Positions 3,681 to 62,330 of a stretch of DNA of 64,000 bases are shown here, piece after piece (within the stretch, counting starts at the first letter, position 1; the number at the start of each line of letters is the position of its first letter). The notes beneath the pieces were generated by a model. That model made no database searches, was not told the DNA's origin, and worked only from the letters and a program-made list of their open reading frames with translations. Location of the stretch: the NCBI GenBank assembly GCA_964252035.1, contig OZ176200.1, one strand, 5' to 3'. Both the position numbers and the translations under genes were made by a program. Source of the DNA: Podarcis erhardii. Its lineage: Eukaryota.

Positions 3681-5057
3681 TATATATTTGTAGAAAAATG
3701 TGCAGTTCTTTTCCAAAAGCTTCTAAGAGAACTTTTTATGCACAGTTTTGCAAACCATAAGGAAATTAATAAGAAGCCTGAGATAACTTTTATACTTCTC
3801 AACAATTTAAGTAAGTTCCTGTCACAGCTGCTATAGACACTTATTTCCTGTGTGTGTACATGAGCTTCAGATCACTCTGAACGTATAATGCAGGCTTTGT
3901 TGGAACAGCCCAACTTCATATCTTGATGGCATAAATTGACTTGCACTGTAATTCTTACAGTAATTAAAAGAACAATAAATTTTCAGAGGAACTAAATCTT
4001 CGGTAATACAGGTTTGAAAATGCCAGCCCGACAGTAATTTATTCTTTGATTATACTGGACATAGCACAAATATCACTCGGTTACATAACAGAATTAATTA
4101 AACTAGTTTGATAGGATCTCTACTTTTGGGTGGGTGGGCATGTAGGGGGAACAAAATACATGGGTGGCTATCTTGTTCCTCCTTCCTCCTCTTCTCTTCT
4201 TAGTGTCTGGAACCTGTAGTTTTGACCAGCTGTGGTTAGAACAAACCACAGTTCCTTGAGATTGTACATACCAGAATTTGGGATCAGAGGTTTCTTTTAA
4301 AGTGAAAGCTTTCTCTCTCTCTGTTCTCACTTGCGGAGGAGGAGATGAGAGGGAGAGAATGCAAGGAAAGTAGTAGTAGTAGAGGTACTCATTCACTATC
4401 ATCTTGATATCTGAATCAGGCCTAAGACTCATTGAACCAGGTAGCAGGTACCTGTTAGGATAGCATTCAGATGACCAGTTTATTTTGCATTCATCCTGAT
4501 TGTGTCCACAAAGTTTGCTGGCAGGTAGTATATGATATTGGTTATGATCTGTTTACAGGGAGATAATATGATTTTGCATCAAGCAATTATTGTTGCACAC
4601 TTTCCGGTGCATTTACTCATCACTTTCCTAACATCAAAAAGTCTGTTTCGTTTTGTTTAGAAAAAGAGGGTTTGTTGCACAAGAGCACCAAATTCACTTT
4701 AATTGCACCACCTGAAGGCTCATATGCAATTGAATTTCACCCACAAAATAATTACTGTTTGTAAATGGCCCACACTGTACACATTGCTATGCCAACTCAG
4801 TGTCACAAAATATTGTTTAGCCTTCCATATGCAACACCCTCCCTTAATTGTTTGGAGTTTAATGCATTTCTTTCATATGATTTACCTGTATGCTCAGCAG
4901 CACAGCCTGTTTTAAAATAAACCCTCCTTTATTGAAGTATCTGCTTAAATCATAATGCCTTGCATGACAAAACCCCCAAAAGATTCATTGGATTTGAAAT
5001 CTAATGCCAGTGATTTTAAATATAGGAGGCTCATATACAGAAAGTGTTTATTACAAT

Positions 5058-18134: not shown

Positions 18135-21057
18135 TCAGAGCACTCCTGACATATGGTTGTCAAGCCTCTGCTTAAAGACCTCCAAAGAAGGAGACTCCAC
18201 CACACTCCTTGGCAGCAAATTCCACTGTCGAACAGCTCTTACTGTCAGGAAGTTCTTCCTAATGTTTAGGTGGAATCTTCTTTCTTGTAGTTTGGAACCA
18301 TTGCTCCATGTCCGCTTCTCTGGAGCAGCAGAAAACAACCTTTCTCCCTCCTCTATGTGACATCCTTTTATATATTTGAACATGGCTATCATATCACCCC
18401 TTAACCTCCTCTTCTCCAGGCTAAACATGCCCAGCTCCCTTAGCCGTTCCTCATAAGGCATCGTTTCCAGGCCTTTGACCATTTTGGTTGCCCTCCTCTG
18501 GACACGTTCCAGTTTGTCAGTGTCCTTCTTGAACTGTGGTGCCCAGAACTGGACACAGTACTCCAGGTGAGGTCTGACCAGAGCAGAATACAGTGGCACT
18601 ATTACTTCCCTTGATCTAGATGCTATACTCCTATTGATGCAGCCCAGAATTGCATTGGCTTTTTTAGCTGCCATGTCACACTGTTGGCTCATGTCAAGTT
18701 TGTGGTCAACCAAGACTCCTAGATCCTTTTCACATGTACTGCTCTCAAGCCAGGTGTCACCCATCTTGTATTTGTGCCTCTCATTTTTTTTTGCCCAAGT
18801 GCAATACTTTACATTTCTCCCTGTCAAAATTCATCTTGTTTGTTTTGGCCCAGTTCTCTAATCTGTCAAGGTTGTTTTGAAGTGTGATCCTGTCCTCTGG
18901 GGTGTTAGCCACCCCTCCCAGTTTGGTGTCATCTGCAAATTTGATCAGGATACCCTTGAGTCCATCATCCAAGTCGTTGATAAAGATGTTGAATAAGACC
19001 GGGCCCAAGACAGAACCCTATGGCACCCCACTAGTCACTCTTCTCCAGGATGAAGAGGAACCATTGATGAGCACCCTTTGGGTTCGGTCAGTCAGCCAGT
19101 TACAAATCCACTGAGTGGTAGCATAGTCAAGACCACATTTTACCAGCTTCTTTACAAGAATATCATGGGGCACCTTGTCAAATGCCTTGCTGAAATCAAG
19201 GTAGGCTACATCCACTACGTTCCCTTCATCTACCAGGGTTGTAATTCTGTCAAAAAACGAGATCAAGTTAGTCTGACATGACTTATTTTTCAGAAATCCA
19301 TGCTGACTATTGGTGATCACAGCATTCCTTTCTAGGTGCTCACAGACTGTTTGCTTAATGATCTGCTCCAGAATCTTCCCTGGTATTGATGTCAGACTGA
19401 CTGGGCGGTAATTATTTGGGTCCTCTCTTTTCCCCTTTTTGAAAACAGGGACAACATTTGCCCTCCTCCAGTCTGCCAGGACTTCGCCTGTTCTCCAGGA
19501 ATTCTCAAAGATGACTGCCAGTGGTTCTGAGATCACATCTGCCAGTTCTTTTAATACTCTTGGATGCAGTTCATCTGGCCCTGGAGACTTGAATACATCT
19601 AGACTAGCCAAGTATTCTTGTACTATCTCCTTAGTTATTCTGGGCTGTGTTTCCTCTGCTGAATCATTTGCTCCAAATTCTTCAGGTCGGGCATTGTTTT
19701 CTTTATCGGAGAAGACTGAGGCAAAGAAGGCATTGAGGAGTTCAGCCCTTTCTGTGTCCCCTGTTTGCATTTCACCATCTTCTCCTCTGAGTGACCCCAC
19801 TGTTTCTTTGTTCTTCCTTTTGCTACGAACATACCCATAAAAGCCTTTTTTGTTGCTTTTAACCTCTTTAGCAAGCCTGAGTTCATTCTGTGCTTTAGCT
19901 TTTCTGACTTTGTGTCTACACGTGCTGGCTATTTGTTTGAATTCCTCTTTGGTGGTTTCCTCCCTTTTCCATTTTTTGTACACATCCTTTTTAAATCTTA
20001 ACTCAGTTAAAAGTTCTTTAGATAGCCACCCTGGCTTCTTTAGGCACCTTCCATGTTTCCGTCTCATTGGTATTGCCTGAAGTTGTGCTTTTACTATCTC
20101 CCTCTTAACAAACTCCCAGCCATCATGAACTCCCTTTCCTTTTAGTATTACTGTCCATGGGATCTCACCCAGCACTTCCCTAAGTTTTATGAAGTCGGCT
20201 TTCTTAAAGTCAAGAAATTGAGTCCTAGTATGCTTGGCTGCTCGTTTCCGCTGTATAGTAAACTTCAGAAGAGCATAATCACTCGCGCCTAATGATCCTT
20301 CCACTTCTACCCCACTAACCAGGTCATCAACATTGGTTAGGACCAGATCTAAAATGGCTGTTCCTCTTGTTGCTTCTCCCACTTTCTGGACAATGAAGTT
20401 GTCTGCAAGGCCAGTGAGGAATCTGTCTGACCTTATGCTCTTGGCTGAGTTTGACATCCAACAAATATCCGGGTAATTGAAGTCCCCCATTACTACTATC
20501 TCCCTTCCTTTTGCATGCTTGGCCATCTGTTCCAGGAAGGCATCATCTATGTCCTCCGTTTGGCTTGGGGATCTATAGTAAACTCCCACAATGAGGTCAC
20601 TGTTATTCTTCTCTCCCTTAATTTTGACCCAAATGCTCTCACTTTGGCTTTGAGCTTCTAAATCTTGGATCTCTTCACAGGTATACACATCCCTGACATA
20701 TAACGCCACTCCTCCTCCTTTCTTGTCTGGTCTGTTTCTCTGAAATAGATTGTATCCCTCCATTATTACATTCCAATTGTGGGACTTATCCCACCAGGTT
20801 TCAGTGATGCCTATTATGTCATATTTAGTTTGCTGTACCAAGAGCTCAAGCTCATCTTGTTTATTTCCCATGCTTTGCGCATTAGTGTACAGACATTGAA
20901 GTCCATTGATCATTCTCCCGTGTCTCTTATTTAGGGATTTTTCCCTCCCACCACTAGGTCTGCGTGCTGTTTGCTCCATTTGGTCTATGACATTTGAATG
21001 ATCATCTTCATCAATTGATAGACTCCTACCTTCAGGAGCACTGTCTCCCTCCCCCAC
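18135..21057 (-). pseudogene. CR1 ORF2 (APE endonuclease + RT) with one nonsense codon and one frameshift
   Basis: LYTNAQS, GITETWW and GDFNYPD endonuclease motifs; YRPVSLTS, QHGF, YLDFSKAFD, SGVP*GSVLGP (TAG at 19020-19018 where Q is expected) and KFADD; frameshift at the T-run near 18784-18792; C-terminus in ORF 18135-18827. Confidence 0.92.
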
Positions 21058-21062
21058 ATTAG

Positions 21063-22136
21063 TCAGTTTAAAGCCCTCCTGATGAGGTTTCTGAGATTTT
21101 TGGCAAAAACATTCCTCCCAACCATTGTGAGGTGCAGCCCATCGCTTGCCAGAAGTCCATCTTCAAGAAACTGCAGTCCGTGATCTAAGAATCCAAACCG
21201 TTCTTGTTTACACCATTTGCGAAGCCAGCTGTTCACTTCCACTATTTTTCCCTCTCTCCCTGGGCCACGTCGTTCAACTGGGAGGACAGATGAGATGACA
21301 ATTTGTGCATTTAATTGCTTCAATTTCCTGCCCAGAGCCTCGTAGTCTCTTTTGATCTTCTGGAGGCTATTGCTTGCAGTGTCATTGGTTCCCACATGAA
21401 CCAAGAGGAAGGGGTATTTGTCAGTGGGTTTTATGATTCCTTGCAGTCATTCAGTTACATCTTGGATCTTAGCCCCGGGGAGACAGCACACTTCCCGAGA
21501 CATCTTGTCAGGCCCACAGATCACTGCTTCTGTTCCCCTCAGTAGGGAATCCCCTATCACCACTATACACCTCCTCTTAGGTCTGGTCGGGGTTCTTCCG
21601 TGAGCTGTCCATTCCAAGGTCGCCTGCACATTCCCTGAGGACTGACTTTGCTGCTCGTCTTCATATACCTGATCGACTGTAATGAGGGAGAGATCCTCAA
21701 ATGGAGTCTGCTCTTCGTCTTCCATGCTAGGGGAGAGGACCTCAAAGTGACTGTGTATTTCTAAACAATCAGAGCGAACCCTGGGCCTCCTACTTCTTTG
21801 AGTCACATTTCTCCATATATCTGGCTCCTGTGTTGGTGAACTAGCCTCCTTCTCAGGGGAGTCCCCTGTCTCCTCCTTGGTGGAGACGGTGTGCTCTGTT
21901 GCTTCCAAGAAGAGCTCCAGCTCTCTAATTCTTTGGAGTGTAGCTACATGTTCCTCCAGTTGCTGGACTTTGTCTTCTAAGAGGGCAATCAACATGCAAT
22001 TGCTGCAGGTAAAGCTGCCTGCAACCTTTGGCAAGATGGCAAGCATTGCGCAGGAACCGCAGGCGACTGCAGCTGTTCCCTCACCCTCCATCTTGAGAAC
22101 GTGTCGTTGGGGGTGGCTACAGCGGTCCTCCATCAT
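21063..22136 (-). pseudogene. CR1 ORF1 (zinc finger, coiled coil, SGNH/GDSL esterase), one in-frame TGA at 21449-21447
   Basis: CGSC...CSNC; leucine heptads; VIGDSLLRG, VHVGTND and DGLHL esterase blocks. DVTE*LQGIIKPTDKYPFLLVHVGTND stays in frame across the stop. Confidence 0.9.
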
Positions 22137-25100
22137 AAAAAGCGTGAAGACAGGACAAATAACTGCCCCCCCAAAAAAACCTAGGTCTCCCCCAACAAAT
22201 GTTTGAGACTAGCTCCCCTAAATCTAAAAGATGGATCAAACTGCGTGCGCCGCTATGTGTGCGCCGCTACCCTGCAAGCTCTGATAAGCTCCTCCCACAG
22301 CTAATCACCTGCCTCAACGGAAACCCTGCCCCCTCTGACCTTTGCACAGGGCGAGCAGCTAATTAGCCACAAAGAAACACACAAGAAAACCCTTTTTGCT
22401 CCTTCTTCAGTGCTGCCCTGCAAGCTCTGATAAGCTCCTCCCACCCTGCACCCTGTGTGTTGAGAATGGAGCTTTATTGGCAGTTTTAGATAGATAATTG
22501 CTTCTTGTTATTGTCCTGGCTCCTAAAAATGAGGTTAGTGATGGGCTACAATAAAATGAACATAAGGGAGAAATGCAAAGGTTTTCCAGGTGTTTCCGGT
22601 GGCAAAGTCATTGGATTCCCAGATATGTATTGCCAAATTATATCCAAATAGGAGATGCCTCATGCTAAACCAACACTATGAAGTTTAGACAGGCAAAATC
22701 TATGGTTGGGATATGTTGACAACCCAGGAGAGGAATCTCATATTCCATCTTGGTGCTGCTACATAGTCAGAGTAACAAGATCTTGTGATTAAAGAGCCAC
22801 CTTGAGATTCAGGAGATTTTATTTATTTATGCTGTCCTCCTTCATTCAGAGCACCTGCAATGAAAAGAAGGATCCATAATGTCATGTATACTTAAGAAAG
22901 TTCCCAAGAGACACTGCGAAAACTGTTATCTATGTGCTTCCAGTCTTGTGGGCTAGGTTGTCTGTCACCTACACTTTAAAAAGGGAGACAGGCGTATGAT
23001 TAATCCCGGTCCTTTTCTCAACAGTTAAATAGGAACAAAAATGTTTTTTTTTCTGCCTGAGCTAAATCAATTATGAATCACCTCATTGATATAAAGATAG
23101 GCTATAGCAAACCTGCTGGGGTTGTTCCTGGAAAATGTGACTAAACAGAAGCAGTTGGTGATCTCCAGCCCACCTACACCTTGAATAAGTTGTTCACAAA
23201 GAAAGAAAGAAAGAAAAAACTTTAGAGCTTCCTTCCTTTCCCTGTGTTGATTTCAGAGAATCTAGCCAGCCCAATCTGTTTTATTTACCAAGGCCCAAAG
23301 TACATATTGCTAAAGCTATTTTGGGCACCACCAATTCACAGCTCTCCGTTATGTGTAGTTGGAAAAAATGGTTGCTGTTGATATCATCACAGCAGAAGGC
23401 TTAACCTGATAACATCTCCACCATTATAATTCTTTTTTTTATATATACATATTACTGGGGAGACATGGGGAAAGTGTGGGTTGGCAAATTCCCCAGGAAA
23501 TGTTCCATTTTGGTTAGAGGTGCAATCTCTACCTTTCTCATTCATCTTTCCCTTTGAAGTATTTACTCAGATGAAGCATTTACTCTTGCCTTGGCATGGT
23601 TTAGCGTATCCAGCTAGATAGTTATACTTTACCCACTGCCTGCCACTGTAGAGAGTTACATTGGTCTTTGCAAACATTTCCCAATGATCTTGTATATGTG
23701 TAATATATCCTGATGCAGCCTGGACACTTTCTGTGCCTTCCAACAACCTCTTTCTTGTGGCACTGATTCCAAAGACCATTGGTTTTGGATTCTTTAATAA
23801 TAACTGATCTGTAACAAAACAATATATAAAGACCAACTTTTTTGTGCTAATCTAAGGCAGATATGCTTCTTCCCTGACAAATAATAAGTCCTTAACATAT
23901 CAAGCATTGGCAGAACATCCATTTAAAAATAGGCCAGTGAAATACTGAGTTTACTATGAAATAGAGAACAGTCTGAAATTTGCTTTGTAACCAAGAAAAA
24001 GACCCTAGAGCTAAAGTTGCTGTATCTTACCCTGGTGTAAACAGCTTTACTGTTTTGTAAAAAAGGCATTTCACATTTCATAATAGAAATAAGCATGTCT
24101 GTATGGATAGCTAATAAAGTCCCCAGATTATTCCTCTTATGGTGCAAGAATGAACCCCCCCCCCAGGTTTCATACTCAAAACTGCTAGGATGGGGAGACA
24201 GAAAAACATGGTTATTTTTGATCCATTCATTGAGGTTTATCTGAAAGCTAGTTACATTAAATGCAAAGGTTCATGCTGCTGCTTAACTCTTGGTGGAAGT
24301 TGCCCATGGGCTCAGAAACCTGGGCTCATGGTTTATCTCCCACAGACAAACCATGGTCAATGAGCCAAGTACAAACCATGATCATGCGTTTGGACATAAT
24401 TCCAAGTCTAACTATGGCTTAGCTTTGGCTTGCATGGTGGCAGCAGGACCAGGGGAGAAATGAAGCAAATGCATTCTCAGCTACCTATTCGTCTCTCTCG
24501 GCTCCCTCCCCACACCCTCTCTCTCTGAACTCTCCTAAGTGATAGAGTAGGAAATGTGTTTGAATGCATCCTATCTGAATCTTACAACACCTCCTGTGTC
24601 AAGGTGTCTATTTAGGGTGCCTAGAATGCCATGCTGTTCTCAGTGATGATTTTGATATGTTGGCTATTCTAGGAGAATGAAAAGTAGAGGATGTCAAGGC
24701 AGCATTTCAAACTAGCTGCTAAGCAGATTTGATAACTGTCGCTGTATTCCCAAGTTAACTTGACAATCTCTGTCACAGTGCAAAGGCTGCAAGATTAGTA
24801 TCTCATGCTTTGGGCCATAGGCTGATGGTGACAGTGTCAGGGAGGTGTTTTGACACGCGTGTAACATGGCAAAAATCTCTAATTTTGCTATCTGCCATTT
24901 TCTGTCAAACTCTGTAAATCCTGGGTGACTGATGCAATAGCCTCTAAATTCTGATCCCCAGGATTACTTTACTTTGGTGGTGGTGGTTGTTTTTTGTTTT
25001 TTAAATTGAGTCTTTATGTTGTCATAATAAAGGAACTTGCTTGTTCTTGCCTAGAGGAACATGAAACATATTCCCTGTTAAAAAGGTTGGAAAGAAAAGT

Positions 25101-51042: not shown

Positions 51043-51149
51043 TGAGGGGCAGGTCAGCAATAACTCACAAGGTGCCAGTGAAATTAACTCTTTATTCAAA
51101 GAAACAAAACAGCTCAGGCCTAGTGAGCACAGCAACTCTTCCCAGTAGG
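51043..51149 (-). mobile_element. Older LTR-like remnant, 3' part with AATAAA
   Basis: Continues the interrupted sequence across the TSD; AATAAA at 51096-51091; possible CA end at 51044-51043. Boundary uncertain. Confidence 0.5.
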
Positions 51150-51772
51150 TGTGCTGGACCCGGGGGAAAGGTACCGTGAGCGTAGTCTGAGTCCACACGA
51201 GGAGGGGCGAGGTCCGAGGCGGAGAGCCGGGCGGGGAACAGGAACGCTGGAACAGGAGGCCGAGCAGGGAACAGGAACACCGGAAGGTCAGGAACAGGAG
51301 GCCGAGCAGGGAACAGGAGCACCGGATGGTCAGGAACAGGAGGCCAAGCAGGGATCAGGAACACAGGAAGGTCCAAAGCCAACAACGACGTTGCTCCCGC
51401 AACCTGGGACCGGGCTGCCTGACCTTTATCTTCTTCTAAGGCCGGGGGCGGTCCCGGCCCCCAGAAGCCCCGCCTCTCTTGGCCTTAAGGCGAGCACTCC
51501 TCCTGGGAGACACCAGTTCCCTTCGCCTCTCTGCCCTAAGCCTCTGCAGATCAGGAGAGGCCGAAGGGTTACTGGGCCCCGGGGGAGGCTCACCTGTAGC
51601 CACTGAGTCTTCCAGCACCTCTGGGGCCTGAATGATTTCACCTGGTGCCTGCTCTTGAGTTTCCTCAGCAACTATGCCTTGCCCCAGTTCAGCCGGCCCT
51701 GAAGGCGGGGACTCCTGCGCCGGCTGGGATTCCTCCGGATCACTCTCAGACTCGGAATCCCAGGCCATCACA
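51150..51772 (-). repeat. 3' LTR (623 bp)
   Basis: Copy of the 5' LTR, directly preceded by the PPT; contains the last ~111 codons of pol. Confidence 0.96.
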
Positions 51773-54700
51773 CCATCCCTCCTCCCAGGCCCCCCCCTCA
51801 CTTGAGGGCCCGGACCCGGCTTGCTGGGGTACGCTGCATAAAACTCCCGGATGCAGGCAGGTGCGTGGACGTTGACCGCTGGTTCCCAGGAACGGTCCTC
51901 TGGCCCATACCCCTTCCAGTCAATGAGATACTGCAGCCGTCCCCTGCGGTATCGGGAGTCCAGAATGCGTTCCACCTCGTACTCAGGCTCTCCCTGCACC
52001 AAGACTGGCTGCGGTCGGGGACGGTCCGGGTGGAACTCGTCGGGTGGGGCCACCGGACTCAGAAGGGACCTGTGGAATACCGGGTGAACCTTCAGGTTTG
52101 CTGGCAACCGGAGACGGAATGCCACAGGCGAGACCTGGTCCACGATAGGAAACGGGCCGGTGAACCGGGCGTCCAGCTTCCGCGAAGGTCGAGAAGGGTG
52201 GAGGTGGCGAGTGGAAAGCCATACCAAGTCACCGATGTGAAGTTCCGGCCCCACCTGGCGGTGGCGGTCGGCCTGGACCTTGTACGCCTCCTTGGCCTGG
52301 TGCAGCTGCTCCATCAACAGCTGTTGCTGGGACTGGAGCTCCTGAAGCCACTCTGTCACCGCAGGGACCGTAGATGCCGGCAGCACATCCGGAAACAACC
52401 GTGGATGAAGGCCATAACTGGCTTGGAACGGGGTCTGCTGGGTGGACGCATTCACCGCGTTGTTATAAGCGAACTCCGCCAATGCTAGGTGGTCGACCCA
52501 GTCGTCCTGCTGGTAGCTGCAGTAACACCGGAGGTACTGTTCCAGTACCGCGTTCGCCCGTTCCGTCTGGCCATCAGTCTGTGGGTGGTAAGCAGATGAG
52601 AGACAGACCTCTGTTCCGAGGGCCTGGTGCAAAGCACGCCAAAACCGGGACGTGAACTGAACGCCGCGGTCGGATACTACACGCTCAGGTAGGCCATGCA
52701 GGCGGAAGACATGCTGAAGGTACAGCTGCGCGGTTTCCTTAGCTGAGGGTATGGATGGGCAGGGGGCACAGTGCACCATCTTCGTGAAGTGGTCGGAGAA
52801 AACTAGAAGGCAGGTGCAGCCACGAGACGGGGGTAACTCCACTACAAAGTCTAGAGAAACTGTGTGCCAAGGACGTGGTGGAACCGGCAACGGCTGAAGG
52901 AGGCCGGGGGGTCGCCCGGTAGGCCCCTTGGCCCGCCTGCAGACGTCACAACCAGCGACGTAGCGAGCCACGTCAGCCTTCAAACGGGGCCACCAAAACT
53001 CACGGCTTACCAGATGGGTGGTCCGATACCGCCCAAAGTGCCCCGCCGCTGGAGCGTCATGGGTCATCCGGAGAACCTCAGCCCGCAGCGGCCCTGGTGG
53101 GATGTACAGGCGCCCGTAGTGCAGCAGAAGACCCTGATGCGAGACCAGCCCTGGATACTGAGGGCATGATCCTTCGGCCAGTTCCTGGAGTCGTTCCTGG
53201 GCCCAAGCGTCGACCCGCTGCTGTTCCCGCACCCGAGCCTGCAGTGGCTCGACCTCCTGGGTGGCCAGGAACGCAGCTGGTGGTAGGATCGTGGTGGGTG
53301 CTGCTTGCTGAACCGTGTCTGCGTTGTCTTCAGGTTTCCGGGACAGGGCATCCGCCTTCTGGTTTTGGGAGCTAGGGATGTAGCGGATCCGGAACTGGAA
53401 CCGGGAAAAGAACAACGCCCACCGGATCTGCCTTTGGTTCAGCTTACGGGTGGTCTGGAGGTATTCCAGGTTCCGGTGGTCGGTTCTCACCTCCACCGGG
53501 TGTCTTGCTCCTTCAAGATGGTGGCGCCAAACCTCAAAGGCCACCTTGATGGCCAGCAGTTCCCGCTCCCACACGGTATAGTTACGCTCCGCTGGAAGGA
53601 GCTGGCGGGAATAGAAGGCGCAGGGTAAGAGTGGCGCTTCCGGTCCGTGCTGCTGAGACAAGACGGCACCGAGAGCCGTACTGGAGGCGTCAGTCTCTAC
53701 CACAAAGGGTCGAGAAGGATCCGGATGTTGCAAGATTGGCGCTCTCTGGAAACAGGCCTTCAACCCTTGAAATGCCTCCTCCGCCTCCTTGTCCCAGGAA
53801 AACGGCGTCTTGGGGCGCAGAAGCCGGGTCAACGGGGTGGTGCGGTGAGCATAATCCGCAATGAAGGTCCGGTAATAGTTGGCGAACCCCAGGAAACGCT
53901 GTAGGTCCTTGCGGTTCCGAGGTGCCGCCCATTCTCGAACCGCTGCCACCTTCCCAGGATCCATTTGCACCCCACCTGGTGAGAGTCGATGACCCAGGAA
54001 GTCCACTGACTGCTGATGGAACTCGCACTTGCTGAGCTTTGCATACAGACGATGCTCGCGCAAGCGCTGCAGCACGGTCCGGACATGGCCCTCGTGGCAC
54101 GCCGGGTCACGGGAGTAAACCAGAATGTCATCCAAGTACACCACCACGTACTTGTCTAGCAAGTCCTGGAACACGTGGTTGATGTACCGTTGGAACACAG
54201 CAGGCGCGTTGCACAAACCAAAGGGCATAACCAGGTATTCAAACTGTCCGTACCGGGTCCCGAATGCTGTCTTCCACTCATCCCCGGCGCGGATCCGAAT
54301 CAAATTGTAGGCTCCCCGGAGGTCTAGCTTGGTGAACACCTGCGCCCCTTGCGCCCGCTCCAGTAACTCCGAAATAAGGGGCAAGGGGTACCGGTCCGGG
54401 ATGGTAATTTTGTTCAGGGCCCGGTAATCATGGCAAAGGCGGAGCTCCCCACATTTCTTTTTAACAAAGAGCACTGGCGCAGCAGTGGGCGAGGTAGAGG
54501 GTCTAATGAACCCACGCTCCAGGTTCTTGCGCAAGAAGTCCTGCAAAGCCTCGCGCTCTGGCTCTGTTAACGAGTATAAGCGACTCACCGGTAGAGGCGC
54601 TCCGGGCTGGAGGTCTATGCCGCAGTCAAAGGACCGATGCGGCGGCAGCTGGTCTGCCCCCCGTTCCTCGAACACGTCGTGATAGTCCCGGTACTCAGCG

Positions 54701-55209
54701 GGGAGCGTCGCAGCCGCCTCCTCAGTGGGCGCAGCTGCTAGCATCTCAGTCTCAGCAGGAGAATTGGGGTCTGGGAAGTGTACAGTCCGTTTGACCCAGT
54801 CAATCTGCACATTGTGAGCCTCTAGCCAGTCCATCCCAAGCACTAGGGGAAACCGGGGCATGGAGGCAATATCCAGAGTTCGCATCTCACGGTGCTGCTG
54901 GAGGCACAGGACCAGGGGCTGGGTCTCTTGAGTGACGGCGCCCGAACGCAGTGGCCGTCCGTCGATTGCCTCCACCTGTACCGGTTCTGGCTTGTTCCGA
55001 AGTGGCACCCGATGCTGGGCAGCAAAAGCAGCGTCCATATAAGAGCGGGTTGCCCCTGAATCCACCAGAGCATGGGTAAGAATCCATGGCCCTCCTGGAG
55101 GGTATAGATGTACCGGAACCATAAGGTGTTGTAATTCAATTGGTGCGGCCCCATTCTGTGCTGTTTGGGACCCCCGGTAGCTAGGGCCATCAGCTACTGG
55201 GGTTGGCGG
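51436..55209 (-). CDS. pol: Pol (protease-RT-RNase H-integrase-chromodomain-tail), read by -1 frameshift; predicted Gag-Pol 1551 aa
   Basis: Stop-free frame. ALVDSGA protease; [12 protein letters not shown] and YLDDIL RT; VETDAS and TDHRNL RNase H; HDAPAAGH...CDVC and D-D-E (SLDF, SDRG, TERAN) integrase; GPF motif; chromodomain EYEVERILD...[17 protein letters not shown]. Confidence 0.95.
51773..51786 (-). promoter_or_regulatory. Polypurine tract GGGAGGAGGGATGG
   Basis: Purine-rich run immediately abutting the TG of the 3' LTR. Confidence 0.85.
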
Positions 55210-55215
55210 TTTCCC
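55170..55215 (-). promoter_or_regulatory. -1 programmed ribosomal frameshift signal (G GGA AAC + stem-loop)
   Basis: Slippery heptamer 55215-55209 is in the gag frame (CAG GGA AAC). 6-nt spacer, then CCCCAGTAGCT/AGCTACCGGGG stem. Pol is in the -1 frame. Confidence 0.88.
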
Positions 55216-56090
55216 TGCGGCTGGCGTTTCTCTGGACAAGACCGAGCGAAGTGTCCACTTCCGCCACAGTAAAGACAGAGATTTCCCTCCCGACGCCGCG
55301 CCTTCTCTGCAGGGGAAAGGCGTGGCCGCACTGCCCCGAGCTGCATAGGCTCCTCCGTTAAATCAGTTGTGACCGTGGGGCTGCTGGAAAAAGCTGGTGC
55401 CGTGAACTGGAAGTGTCGGCGACCCCGGGCCTGACGACGATCCTCCAACCGATCGTCTATTTGTAGACACCGTTGAATGAGAGTGTCTAGCGTGGTGGGG
55501 CGTTCCATTGTGGCCAACTGGTCCAGTACCTCATCTGAAAGCCCCTCGAGATACTGGTCCCGCAGTGCCGAATCATTCCAGGTCAAGTCCTGTGCCAGCA
55601 GCCGAAACTCCGTGGTATATGCGGCCACCGTGGACTTGCCCTGTTTCAAACGCCGAATCGCCCGGTTGGCTTGACTCCCTTTCTGGGGATTGCCGAACGC
55701 GGCCTCCAAATGATTGCAAAACCCCGTATAGTCTGCCAGCAAGGGGGAGTCTTGCCTGAGTAGCGGCAACGCCCACTTGGCCGCCTGGTCCTTTAACAAA
55801 CTAATCAAAAAGTGCACCTTGGTGCGGTCGTCAGGAAAGTTCCGGGCTCGCCCCTGAATATACAGCTTGGCCTGGGCCAGGAACATGGGAAAGCTGGCCG
55901 GGGCTCCATCAAATTTCTCAGGCAAAGCCACTGGGTACTTGCCAGGAGCCGGGGCGTCGGCCCCAGGAGCCGGTAGGGCTTCCAAGCGTTGCTGAAGTGC
56001 TACAACCGCGTCACTGAGCTGCTGCACGGTGTGAGTCAAGGTCTGGTTCCTCTGGGCCAAATCCACCAGTGCAGCCGCCTGGTCAGCCAT
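55194..56090 (-). CDS. gag: Gag (298 aa), sushi/PEG10-like capsid with CCHC zinc knuckle
   Basis: gccATGG strong Kozak; N-terminal heptad-like segment; LPEKFDG motif; QxxSxVAAYxxEFRxL / DQYLEGL capsid block; [14 protein letters not shown] (CX2CX4HX4C). Confidence 0.95.
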
Positions 56091-56142
56091 GGCCTCTGGC
56101 TCTTCCCGAACGCACCCCTACGAAGGGGGAGTGCGGGTGTCG

Positions 56143-56152
56143 GCGGGAGCAA
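56143..56152 (-). promoter_or_regulatory. Primer-binding-site position: non-tRNA, putative self-priming sequence TTGCTCCCGC
   Basis: Starts 2 nt inside the 5' LTR boundary; no TGG start; perfectly complementary to GCGGGAGCAA at 56405-56396 in the LTR. Confidence 0.75.
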
Positions 56153-56154
56153 AC

Positions 56155-56777
56155 TGTGCTGGACCCGGGGGAAAGGTACCGTGAGCGTAGTCTGAGTCCA
56201 CACGAGGAGGGGCGAGGTCCGAGGCGGAGAGCCGGGCGGGGAACAGGAACGCTGGAACAGGAGGCCGAGCAGGGAACAGGAACACCGGAAGGTCAGGAAC
56301 AGGAGGCCGAGCAGGGAACAGGAGCACCGGATGGTCAGGAACAGGAGGCCAAGCAGGGATCAGGAACACAGGAAGGTCCAAAGCCAACAACGACGTTGCT
56401 CCCGCAACCTGGGACCGGGCTGCCTGACCTTTATCTTCTTCTAAGGCCGGGGGCGGTCCCGGCCCCCAGAAGCCCCGCCTCTCTTGGCCTTAAGGCGAGC
56501 ACTCCTCCTGGGAGACACCAGTTCCCTTCGCCTCTCTGCCCTAAGCCTCTGCAGATCAGGAGAGGCCGAAGGGTTACTGGGCCCCGGGGGAGGCTCACCT
56601 GTAGCCACTGAGTCTTCCAGCACCTCTGGGGCCTGAATGATTTCACCTGGTGCCTGCTCTTGAGTTTCCTCAGCAACTATGCCTTGCCCCAGTTCAGCCG
56701 GCCCTGAAGGCGGGGACTCCTGCGCCGGCTGGGATTCCTCCGGATCACTCTCAGACTCGGAATCCCAGGCCATCACA
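56155..56777 (-). repeat. 5' LTR (623 bp)
   Basis: Begins TGTGATGG and ends AGCACA on the minus strand. No mismatch to the 3' LTR seen by eye; ORF-track translations are identical at offset 5005. Confidence 0.96.
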
Positions 56778-56782
56778 GTAGG

Positions 56783-57260
56783 TCTTGTCCCAACGCAGCA
56801 GTTGTGAGGACTGAAGGTCCCTGCCTTTCTACAGCTCTCTAAATCTCCTCCTCCTCCAGGTCCTTCCCAAGGAACCTGAGACTTCTCCACCATTACTGTC
56901 TTCATTACTACCACCCTCTTCATACCTCTTTGGGTTCGAGGAAACCAGTAGAGGAGAGGAGCTGGTTGCAGCAGGAGGGGGAGACTCCCTGGCTTCTTCA
57001 GTAGCCTGCCTGAGCTCTGCCTCTTGCCCCCCCCCCCGATTCTGCCTCTGATTCTGGGCTGCTCTCTGCAACAGCCTCTTCCTGCTCACTAAACCCTGTT
57101 ACCTCTTCAGCTTCAGGCACCTCCTCCTCCTCCCAGTCTTCCCCCTCTGACCACTCCTTGTTGTCCCACCATCAGTCCCCTGAGCTCTGAGCCTTCTTCC
57201 CTTGGGGGTTCCCCAGCAGGTGCCTCCCACCATTCCTCTGCGTCCAGCCAGTCCATGACA
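56783..57260 (-). mobile_element. Older LTR-like remnant, 5' part (the Gypsy element is inserted in it)
   Basis: Starts TGTCATGG on the minus strand; purine-rich, frameshifted acidic/Pro-rich coding-like sequence. No matching TSD found. Confidence 0.6.
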
Positions 57261-60186: not shown

Positions 60187-61515
60187 ATCATCTCCTAATA
60201 CTCTTTGGCTTTCTTACAAATCCACCACATGTGTATAAATGTCCCTTCAATCTCTTCACATTGAGATCCCAGTAAATGTCAAACAGGGCCAACACTTCCC
60301 CCACCCGCCAGATCAATTACAGGCCTTCTAGCCTTTAACAAAGTTAAACTAATAATAAACAAATACATTTCAATGGCCATTGGTAGAGAAACTCCACAAA
60401 TGGAATACACTCATTGTCTTTTATTAACGTTCTATGTTATTTCTTAAAGGGAGACACAAACTGTTTTTTTTTTTTAATGGATTGCTTTCTTCTTCCTGCC
60501 CTCTTTTGTTCTGACTGAGTCCTCTCTCTCTCTCTCTCTCTTTTTTATAAAAACTGGGGCTAAATAAAGAAGAGGAAGTAGGTGCTCCGCTTCTGACTGG
60601 GGGATGCTTCCAGATCGTTTACACGGGGCTGTTCCCTGCTTGCATCACTCACCAACCCCATCTACTCCCACCTCCATCCACACCCTTAACCAAAGCCACC
60701 CCTCCCTCCTGCTCTCCCCTTAGATCTCACTAAACCTCTACAGCTCACCTGGGCTGCTTGCTTGCCACAACAAACCATCCACATCTTAATGTTAAAGCCT
60801 TTAAAACTATTTCTTGTGCAAGACCTCCAGGTTGGTATCTGAAATGGTCGTCAATATTTCTGGGGTGAGCCTATTGCTCATTTGCACAAATACCTGGAAG
60901 AGGTTCTAAAATATTTTCTCAGATTAGCAAACCGGACTTTTACAAAATGAAAACTAGTTTTGAAACTGCTACAATCTCTTGGCCAAAACACTCGGATGAT
61001 GCATTAGAAAGTTTGAACTTTTCTCAGGGCATTTAAATGTGTTATTAGAATGACAATAAAAAAATGTCGACATTTAATTGCATCTATAGAAGGTGTCTGT
61101 GTAAAGAGTGACTTGGTATACATTTTTATCAGTGGGTCTTTCAAGTTCTGCTGTAGGTTAGACCAATTTGGAATATCTCTTTACTGATTTATTATAGAAT
61201 GTTAAGGGTGGGGTGGGTGGGATGGAGAAACCCTGTTTGTCACTTCAAAACAACAACAACTTCAGATTAACAAGCTTAAGTACTCTTATGAAAAGAACAA
61301 ATAAGTGACTTTATCTAAGCTTATTGTGTGTGGGGGACCTAAGAAAGAAAAGGGTGTATAATAGTTCAAAATTTGGATTGCAGGGGTAAGATGTCATGTT
61401 CAATGTCCCCAAATCTTTCACGTGTATTACATTTAAGACATTGGGCTGGATGGTTAGGCTACATGTCTGAATCATTATGGTACAAGACCAAGAGAGCCTC
61501 AGGGATATTTGGTGG

Positions 61516-62330
61516 GGAAGAAATATCAACAACCTCAGATATGCAGATGACACAACCTTGATGGCAGAAAGTGAGGAGGAATTAAAGAACCTTTTACTGA
61601 GGATGAAAGAGGAGAGCGCAAAATATGGTTTGAAGCTCAACATCAAAAAAAGGAAGATCATGGCCACTGGTCCCATCACCTCCTGGCAAATAGAAGGGGA
61701 AGAAATGGAGGCAGTGAGAGATTTTACTTTCTTGGACTCCATGATCACTGCAGATGGTGACAACAGCCACGAAATTAAAAGACGCCTGCTTCTTGGGAGA
61801 AAAGCAATGACAAACCTAGACAGCATCTTAAAAAGCAGAGACATCACCTTGCCGACAAAGGTCCGTAAAGTTAAGGCTATGGTTTTCCCAGTAGTGATGT
61901 ATGGAAGTGAGAGCTGGACCATAAAGAAGGCTGATCGTCGAAGAATTGATGCTTTTGAATTATGGTGCTGGAGGAGACTCTTGAGAGTCCCATGGACTGC
62001 AAGAAGATCAAACCTATCCATTCTTAAGGAAATCAGCCCTGAGTGTTCACTGGAAGGACAGATCGTGAAGCTAAGGCTCCAATACTTTGGCCACCTCATG
62101 AGAAGAGAAGACTCCCTGGAAAAGACCCTGATGTTGGGAAAGATGGAGGGCACAAGGAGAAGGGGACAACAGAGGATGAGATGGTTGGACAGTGTTCTCG
62201 AAGCTACCAGCATGAGTTTGGCCAAACTGCGGGAGGCAGTGGAAGACAGGAGTGCCTGGCGTGCTCTGGTCCATGGCGTCATGAAGAGTCGGACATGACT
62301 AAACGACTAAACAACAAAAACAAAAACAAA
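61516..62330 (+). mobile_element. 5'-truncated RTE/Bov-B LINE (RT C-terminal half, CAA-rich tail) in the C11orf91 intron
   Basis: GRNINNLRYADDTTLMAESEEELK...EIKRRLLLGRKAMTNLDSILKSRDITLPTKV...WRALVHGV is diagnostic of Bov-B; tail aacaacaaaaacaaaaacaa. 5' boundary approximate. Confidence 0.93.

Follow-up and report, generated by a model that had tools for sequence, protein, structure and literature searches.

Recurrent gag-pol fusion and a reading frame extending into the long terminal repeat in a young chromovirus family of the lizard Podarcis erhardii

The window analyzed here is a 64,000-nucleotide stretch of contig OZ176200.1 from the lizard Podarcis erhardii (assembly GCA_964252035.1). At positions 51150-56777, on the minus strand, it contains a Ty3/Gypsy element that belongs to a lacertid family of Tf1/sushi chromoviruses. 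Taken alone, this copy is ordinary and of modest interest; the principal observation concerns its family, in which alleles that fuse gag and pol into a single frame arose about six times, sister lineages included. The counts behind this family-level pattern are solid, and selection for fusion is proposed as its probable cause.

The element is bounded by two long terminal repeats (LTRs) of 623 bp, the 5' LTR at 56155-56777 and the 3' LTR at 51150-51772 (both on the minus strand), which have TG...CA ends and are identical at 623 of 623 bases. It is flanked by the target-site duplication GTAGG (51145-51149 and 56778-56782), and a polypurine tract (51773-51786, minus strand) adjoins the 3' LTR inside the pol frame. 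The gag gene (55194-56090, minus strand; 298 codons, with the ATG at 56090) encodes a capsid and a CCHC zinc knuckle. The pol frame (51436-55362, minus strand; 1308 codons from stop to stop), in frame -1 with respect to gag, encodes protease, reverse transcriptase (RT), RNase H, and integrase, followed by an SH3 region, a chromodomain, and a tail, and carries what we take to be the DSG, YLDD, RNase H, HHCC, and D,D35E motifs. The order of gag followed by protease, RT, RNase H, and then integrase, with no env, is that of the Ty3/Gypsy elements (Metaviridae), as are the LTR ends, the short target duplication, and the purine tract. In the integrase, the SH3/GPY-F region (PF24626, over the cut-off) precedes a chromodomain (51838-51981, minus strand; PF00385, over the cut-off, with matches to HP1 and CBX proteins), the arrangement typical of Tf1/sushi chromoviruses. 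A TATA-like GATAAA (56430-56435, minus strand), about 30 nt upstream of the predicted RNA start, could be part of the promoter.

The ratio of observed to expected CpG is 0.69 within the element, compared to 0.20 and 0.30 in the left and right flanks, respectively. Given zero LTR differences and assumed rates of 5 to 1 x 10^-9 substitutions per site per year, the age of this copy is less than about 0.5-2.4 million years. An earlier note on this sequence had described an intact, very recent insertion with LTRs matching by eye, a perfect 5-bp duplication, stop-free gag and pol with all catalytic motifs, a purine tract, and undepleted CpGs, and each of these observations holds up on measurement. 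What does not hold is the special standing of the copy: this genome contains several families whose copies, numbering in the hundreds, are just as young. Collapse of the two LTRs into a consensus during assembly, which the same note considered, is unlikely because the two LTRs of each sibling copy carry their own locus-specific variants, and 33 of 68 sibling pairs differ by 1-9 substitutions. The empty-site comparison covered the left junction in contigs of four runs, where the adjoining flank is itself a repeat. The position of the chromodomain and the primer site described below agree with membership in the Tf1/sushi group, and the identification of the window copy as a chromovirus of Tf1/sushi type that is intact, inserted very recently, and resides in a tetrapod is supported. 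To the earlier description we add a self-primer site, a frameshift cassette, the continuation of pol into the LTR, and the nesting of the element in an older LTR-like repeat.

The primer-binding site (56143-56152, minus strand) is not a TGG-type tRNA site. The 10 bases that follow the 5' LTR are perfectly complementary to LTR positions 373-382, which form the predicted start of R (56396-56405, minus strand), a length of complementarity that was reached in 0 of 600 control windows. The exact complement is kept in 66 of 68 sibling copies. In the copy L043, both LTRs (position 374) and the primer site carry matching changes, as expected if the primer site were re-copied from the element's own RNA primer; L133 and L148 carry one-sided changes. 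A distant chromovirus family in the same genome has a different 11-mer as its apparent self-primer, with a compensatory variant. The primer duplex does not appear in the minimum-energy fold of the long leader. A primer site complementary to the start of the element's own RNA (a predicted start in this case), with no tRNA involved, is the layout known for the Tf1/sushi group (passages of PMC10085805 and PMC6317226), and the window element likely primes reverse transcription with its own RNA.

At the end of gag, the window copy contains a predicted -1 frameshift cassette (55147-55215, minus strand) that consists of the slippery heptamer G GGA AAC, a 6-nt spacer, an 11-bp stem, and a possible second stem that would form a pseudoknot. 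At the sequence level, this combination is what would be expected of a sister lineage of PEG10 and the SIRH genes: in PEG10, the same heptamer is followed by a short spacer and a stem in the same layout (as far as described in passages of PMC2800197). The window element likely produces Pol by a PEG10-type -1 frameshift.

Searching the 1.5-Gb genome with a pattern for the gag-pol junction identified at least 82 near-identical copies of the window subfamily. Thirty siblings that were compared to the window copy differ from it by 0.21-1.1%; among 68 sibling LTR pairs, 35 have no substitution and 21 have one, and 63 are flanked by a perfect 5-bp duplication. Two sister lineages (88.8% and 91.9% identity in the internal region) are as young as the window copy, and so is the distant chromovirus family, which has a pol of 1376 codons.

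The junction between the zinc knuckle and the gag stop (55194-55229, minus strand) has no insertion in the window copy, which keeps the frameshift, and carries one-base insertions in many of its siblings. Although the search pattern allowed longer and shorter variants alike, the 82 junctions comprise 55 of wild-type length, 27 that are one base longer, and none that are shorter. The 27 fused copies carry six +1 alleles, read off the listing, in 10, 10, 4, 1, 1, and 1 copies. The full-length comparison included 71 copies, namely, all 27 fused ones, which were fetched on purpose, and 44 of the unfused ones; the frame is open to the purine tract in 24 of the former and 34 of the latter. All insertions in these 71 copies map to inner positions 925-944, between the end of the knuckle (919) and the gag stop (958), and each joins gag and pol in one frame while leaving Gag whole. 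No +1 insertion was found at the other 215 of the 219 homopolymer runs counted in the 71 copies. This count leaves out the G8 run, located next to the purine tract and variable in both directions. Among the Podarcis proteins in the databases, which are gene models, some of them plainly patched, both fused and unfused junctions are present.

The fused copies form several clades, with two groups of six copies each (ultrafast bootstrap, UFBoot, 95 and 98), nested pairs (97-99), and private shared changes. One +1 allele occurs in three separate clades. Two singleton alleles nest inside fused clades and may derive from other alleles by substitution, so we count at least four origins within the subfamily. 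Changes that are confined to and shared among fused copies include 13 synonymous and 4 nonsynonymous ones, compared to 62 and 72 among the singletons of these copies (Fisher p 0.022). The unfused branches behave alike (27 and 10 shared versus 123 and 151 singletons; p 0.0015). The excess of synonymous changes shared among fused copies suggests that fused lineages depend on the proteins they encode.

Both sister lineages are fixed for fusing alleles that differ from those of the window subfamily, and both are larger. In the first, fusing alleles were counted by hand in 56 among the first 100 of 228 matches; the two alleles are one substitution apart and probably have one origin. The older copy L197, with a sister-type pol and an unfused junction, branches below this lineage, which indicates that its fusion is derived; four loci that are not full length (two solo LTRs and two partial copies) were left out of this tree. 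In the second, the fusing allele is present in 100 among the first 100 of 152 matches, the stem has decayed, and gag differs by about 19% in the tree. The distant -1 family served as a control: among its 150 rows, by eye, no frame exceeds 1422 codons, whereas a fusion would give about 1650. We did not find recurrent gag-pol fusion within one family in the literature searched; Repbase, GyDB, key older papers, and the supplements of PMC11011659 were outside the scope of this search.

We consider it probable, although by no means secure, that the recurrence of fusion reflects selection for fused copies. Under this scenario, the element would be transcribed from its LTR and then self-primed by its RNA, and integration would be guided by the chromodomain and perhaps by the tail. 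Unfused copies would produce Gag plus a minority of Gag-Pol through the -1 frameshift, whereas fused RNA would yield Pol at every round of translation, and these enzymes would act mainly on their own RNA. The capsid for fused copies could be cut from their own polyprotein, in the manner of single-ORF (open reading frame) Tf1, or be supplied by frameshifting siblings. Selection of this kind would explain the placement of the insertions because only those between the zinc knuckle and the gag stop keep Gag whole.

Several observations weigh against selection. Most of the alleles lengthen short homopolymers located right upstream of a strong stem and look like products of slippage. With 55 of the 82 copies, including the one in the window, retaining the frameshift, fusion has not swept the subfamily. 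Mosaic lineages make recombination evident, and recombination can move alleles between clades and so inflate the count of origins. For the two alleles present in 10 copies each, the mean distance between copies is no smaller than random (p 0.15 and 0.25), a pattern consistent with many de novo events. In addition, frameshifting, self-priming, and activity are all predictions from sequence.

The main alternative is a mutation hotspot combined with tolerance: stalling of RT or RNA polymerase at the stem would be followed by backward slippage and the addition of a base, with siblings supplying Gag, such that no advantage of the fused copies is needed. We regard this explanation as somewhat unlikely but serious. 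Three of the main alleles lengthen AAA or GGG runs no more than 30 nt from the stem, and both the recurrence of one allele in three clades and the distances within the two 10-copy alleles, no tighter than random, are as expected from a hotspot. Judging by its title, a 1992 paper by Kirchner reportedly deals with a Ty3 fusion mutant limited by capsid supply. However, a slippage hotspot does not readily account for the lack of deletions in the 82 junctions and in the first 100 of the 228 sister matches, for the one allele that is not a simple run extension, or for purifying selection on the fused-only branches. Nor does it account for fixation in the lineage with 152 matches despite the decayed stem and divergent gag, or for the absence of a fused frame in the second -1 family.

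Another alternative is an advantage at the RNA level: removal of the early gag stop would allow fused RNAs to escape decay triggered by a 3' untranslated stretch of 4 kb and become over-represented among packaged genomes. This possibility draws on general knowledge of nonsense-mediated decay and is in line with the termination of pol inside the LTR, near the 3' end of the RNA, in two families. Alone, it does not explain purifying selection on the proteins of fused lineages, and we consider it improbable as the sole cause; it can, however, work together with selection for fusion. An artefact of sequencing or assembly as the source of the insertions and of the LTR identity is highly improbable: homopolymer errors are typical of long reads, and the G8 run does vary both ways, but errors would scatter over the 219 runs rather than affect four, the alleles travel with private substitutions, the database gene models show both junction states, and LTR haplotypes are locus-specific.

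The second unusual feature of the family is the 3' end of pol. The pol frame passes through the purine tract and continues for 111 codons into the U3 region of the 3' LTR (51436-51768, minus strand), encoding a tail that is acidic and then basic and contains the motif RRSARL (51487-51504). The tail has no Pfam match. Compared to the sister lineages, it shows a ratio of nonsynonymous to synonymous substitution rates (dN/dS) of 0.38-0.42, an enrichment of changes at third positions (p 0.01-0.03), and a frame-keeping 18-bp indel. In the distant family, pol extends 289 nt into its own LTR with the same acidic-then-basic layout and a different basic patch, and the layout recurs in proteins of an amphisbaenian, two vipers, a cobra, and a tegu. 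This LTR-encoded tail probably belongs to the integrase, where it may assist in entering the nucleus or docking on chromatin. We found no LTR-coded tail in lizards in the literature searched, with Repbase, GyDB, and key older papers outside its scope.

RRSARL matches six of the eight residues of the HMGN nucleosome-binding consensus (RRSARLSA-type, with three arginines; passages of PMC13347269 and PMC12480509) and is kept in the Podarcis proteins P0001 and P0070. Nevertheless, a role of the tail in nucleosome docking appears unlikely. The basic part is conserved at synonymous sites as well (dS about 0.06), RRSARL codons included, so the constraint may be on promoter DNA; and RRSxR occurs in 0 of 26 screened matches to the chromodomain motif, for which reason RRSARL was rejected as a clade-wide signal. 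As a separate observation, four fungal or unnamed chromovirus Pol proteins (P0035, P0038, P0039, and P0056) have RRSSAR- or RRSARL-like ends at the purine tract, and integrases more widely may share a basic RRS-R end. The G8 run (inner position 4357, window position 51797) gains or loses bases in 13 of the 71 copies, through either slippage or read error, altering or cutting the LTR-coded tail.

Taken together, these findings suggest a composite scenario that we advance tentatively, as plausible rather than probable: frameshift-less fusions are repeatedly selected, spread as selfish Pol-rich lineages beside their frameshifting siblings, and become fixed as single-ORF families, while the integrase carries an LTR-encoded, HMGN-like tail that docks on chromatin. 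This course of events would explain why a published lizard proxy for the ancestor of PEG10, discussed below, has no frameshift.

Several further features of the family and of the window were recorded. The element is inserted in an older, decayed LTR-like repeat (56778-57260, continuing at about 51045-51149, minus strand) that has a TG start, an AATAAA, and a decayed acidic-then-basic frame, and is presumably an LTR. It begins with TGTCATG, to be compared with TGTGATG in the young LTR, and, with its broken acidic-then-basic coding pieces, could be an LTR from a third family whose tail is likewise encoded in U3. Similarity to this repeat was seen in only 2 of 70 sibling 5' flanks; the nesting thus looks incidental, and targeting of the repeat as a property of the family was rejected. 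The subfamily has two types of LTR that are alike in U3 and over the initial 18 nt downstream of the predicted RNA start and differ (about 70% identity) in the tandem-repeat R/U5 region, positions 391-623 of the window LTR. Among the 71 copies, 53 are of type B, 16 of type A, and 2 unassigned. The window copy is of type A, with an R/U5 that matches those of the sister lineages, suggestive of a swap at the R boundary. The distant family (L081-L100) has many young copies with 396-bp LTRs, a long acidic stretch after a chromodomain that looks degenerate, and a pol that ends past the predicted RNA start inside the LTR. Among 41 target duplications, the first base is C or G in 33, and the last base is G or C in 34. 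Tandem elements with a common LTR are found at L044 (C1:17.13 Mb) and C19:2.85 Mb, with junction matches 5.0-5.1 kb apart, whereas L048 and L049 are solo LTRs whose duplications are intact. Elsewhere in the window, there is a fairly young, near full-length long interspersed element (LINE) with long open frames (18135-22208, minus strand), which we take to be CR1-like, and, presumably, the 3' end of an RTE/BovB-like LINE (61471-62298, plus strand).

The ratio of Gag to Gag-Pol is commonly viewed as an invariant and essential parameter of retroviruses and LTR retrotransposons, and changes among frameshifting, readthrough, and a single ORF are known from comparing distant elements (PMC10085805 and PMC5009743). 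Here, such a switch is observed repeatedly among copies that differ by less than about 1%, and one genome contains the intermediates as well as the fixed end points, which allows sequence and population study of how an element tolerates or exploits the loss of recoding. It also bears on a puzzle stated for the ancestor of PEG10 in passages of PMC11011659.

That this element is a relative of the PEG10 ancestor, as the earlier note proposed, is in keeping with the C-terminal domain of its capsid, for which PEG10 is the best match among solved structures (E 4.9e-20, compared to 0.056 for Ty3), and with the shared slippery heptamer; the novelty was overstated. PEG10 itself is a single-copy, immobile gene without integrase or LTRs, unlike the window element. 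The Anolis element Gypsy-15_Ano is already published as a proxy for the PEG10 ancestor, and reptile metaviruses are described as still active (passages of PMC11011659). According to the same passages, Gypsy-15_Ano lacks the frameshift that the ancestor of PEG10 must have had, whereas the window copy keeps it; a proxy of this kind would be accounted for if squamate lineages often lost the frameshift. In a quick tree of RT and RNase H with 55 rows, among them none for PEG10, RTL1, sushi-ichi, or Tf1, the window element groups with those of Podarcis and Anolis and with the distant family (SH-aLRT, the approximate likelihood-ratio branch test, 96), beside elements from amphibians and fish (83). 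Because several of the amphibian and fish relatives consist of one long protein, there is nothing new in a single ORF per se.

The closest known relatives are unannotated gene models of Podarcis muralis (UniRef A0A670IJD3 and its cluster), with 97% identity in RT and RNase H, 86% in the integrase C-terminus including the tail, and 88% in gag; the closest tail among them is 96-98% identical to that of a sister lineage in the genome studied here. Plant CRM elements are known to have coding sequence that extends into the 3' LTR (passages of PMC3059260 and PMC3605345). The CRM group A elements have a tRNA-Met primer and an LTR-coded CR motif that replaces the chromodomain, whereas the window element has a true chromodomain ahead of the tail, a self-primer, and a tail without a Pfam match. 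Only the LTR-overlapping frame is alike, and given the chromodomain and the self-primer, membership in CRM group A was rejected. Tf1 and Tf2 of Schizosaccharomyces pombe are self-priming and have a single gag-pol ORF, as in the fused lineages (passages of PMC10085805); the window copy has a -1 overlap instead, and the host of Tf1 and Tf2 is a distant fungus. The Tf1/sushi group as a whole, including the GyDB V-clade (sushi-ichi and Amn) and Anolis Gypsy elements, shares the domain order, the chromodomain, and the self-priming layout with the window element. A -1 frameshift is the usual state in this group outside fission yeast (passages of PMC10085805 and PMC6317226), and frameshift, readthrough, and single ORF are treated as differences between elements (passages of PMC10085805 and PMC5009743). 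The window family, a single young one, contains frameshifting lineages beside fused ones, and its pol reaches 111 codons into the LTR, two properties not found for the group in the papers searched.

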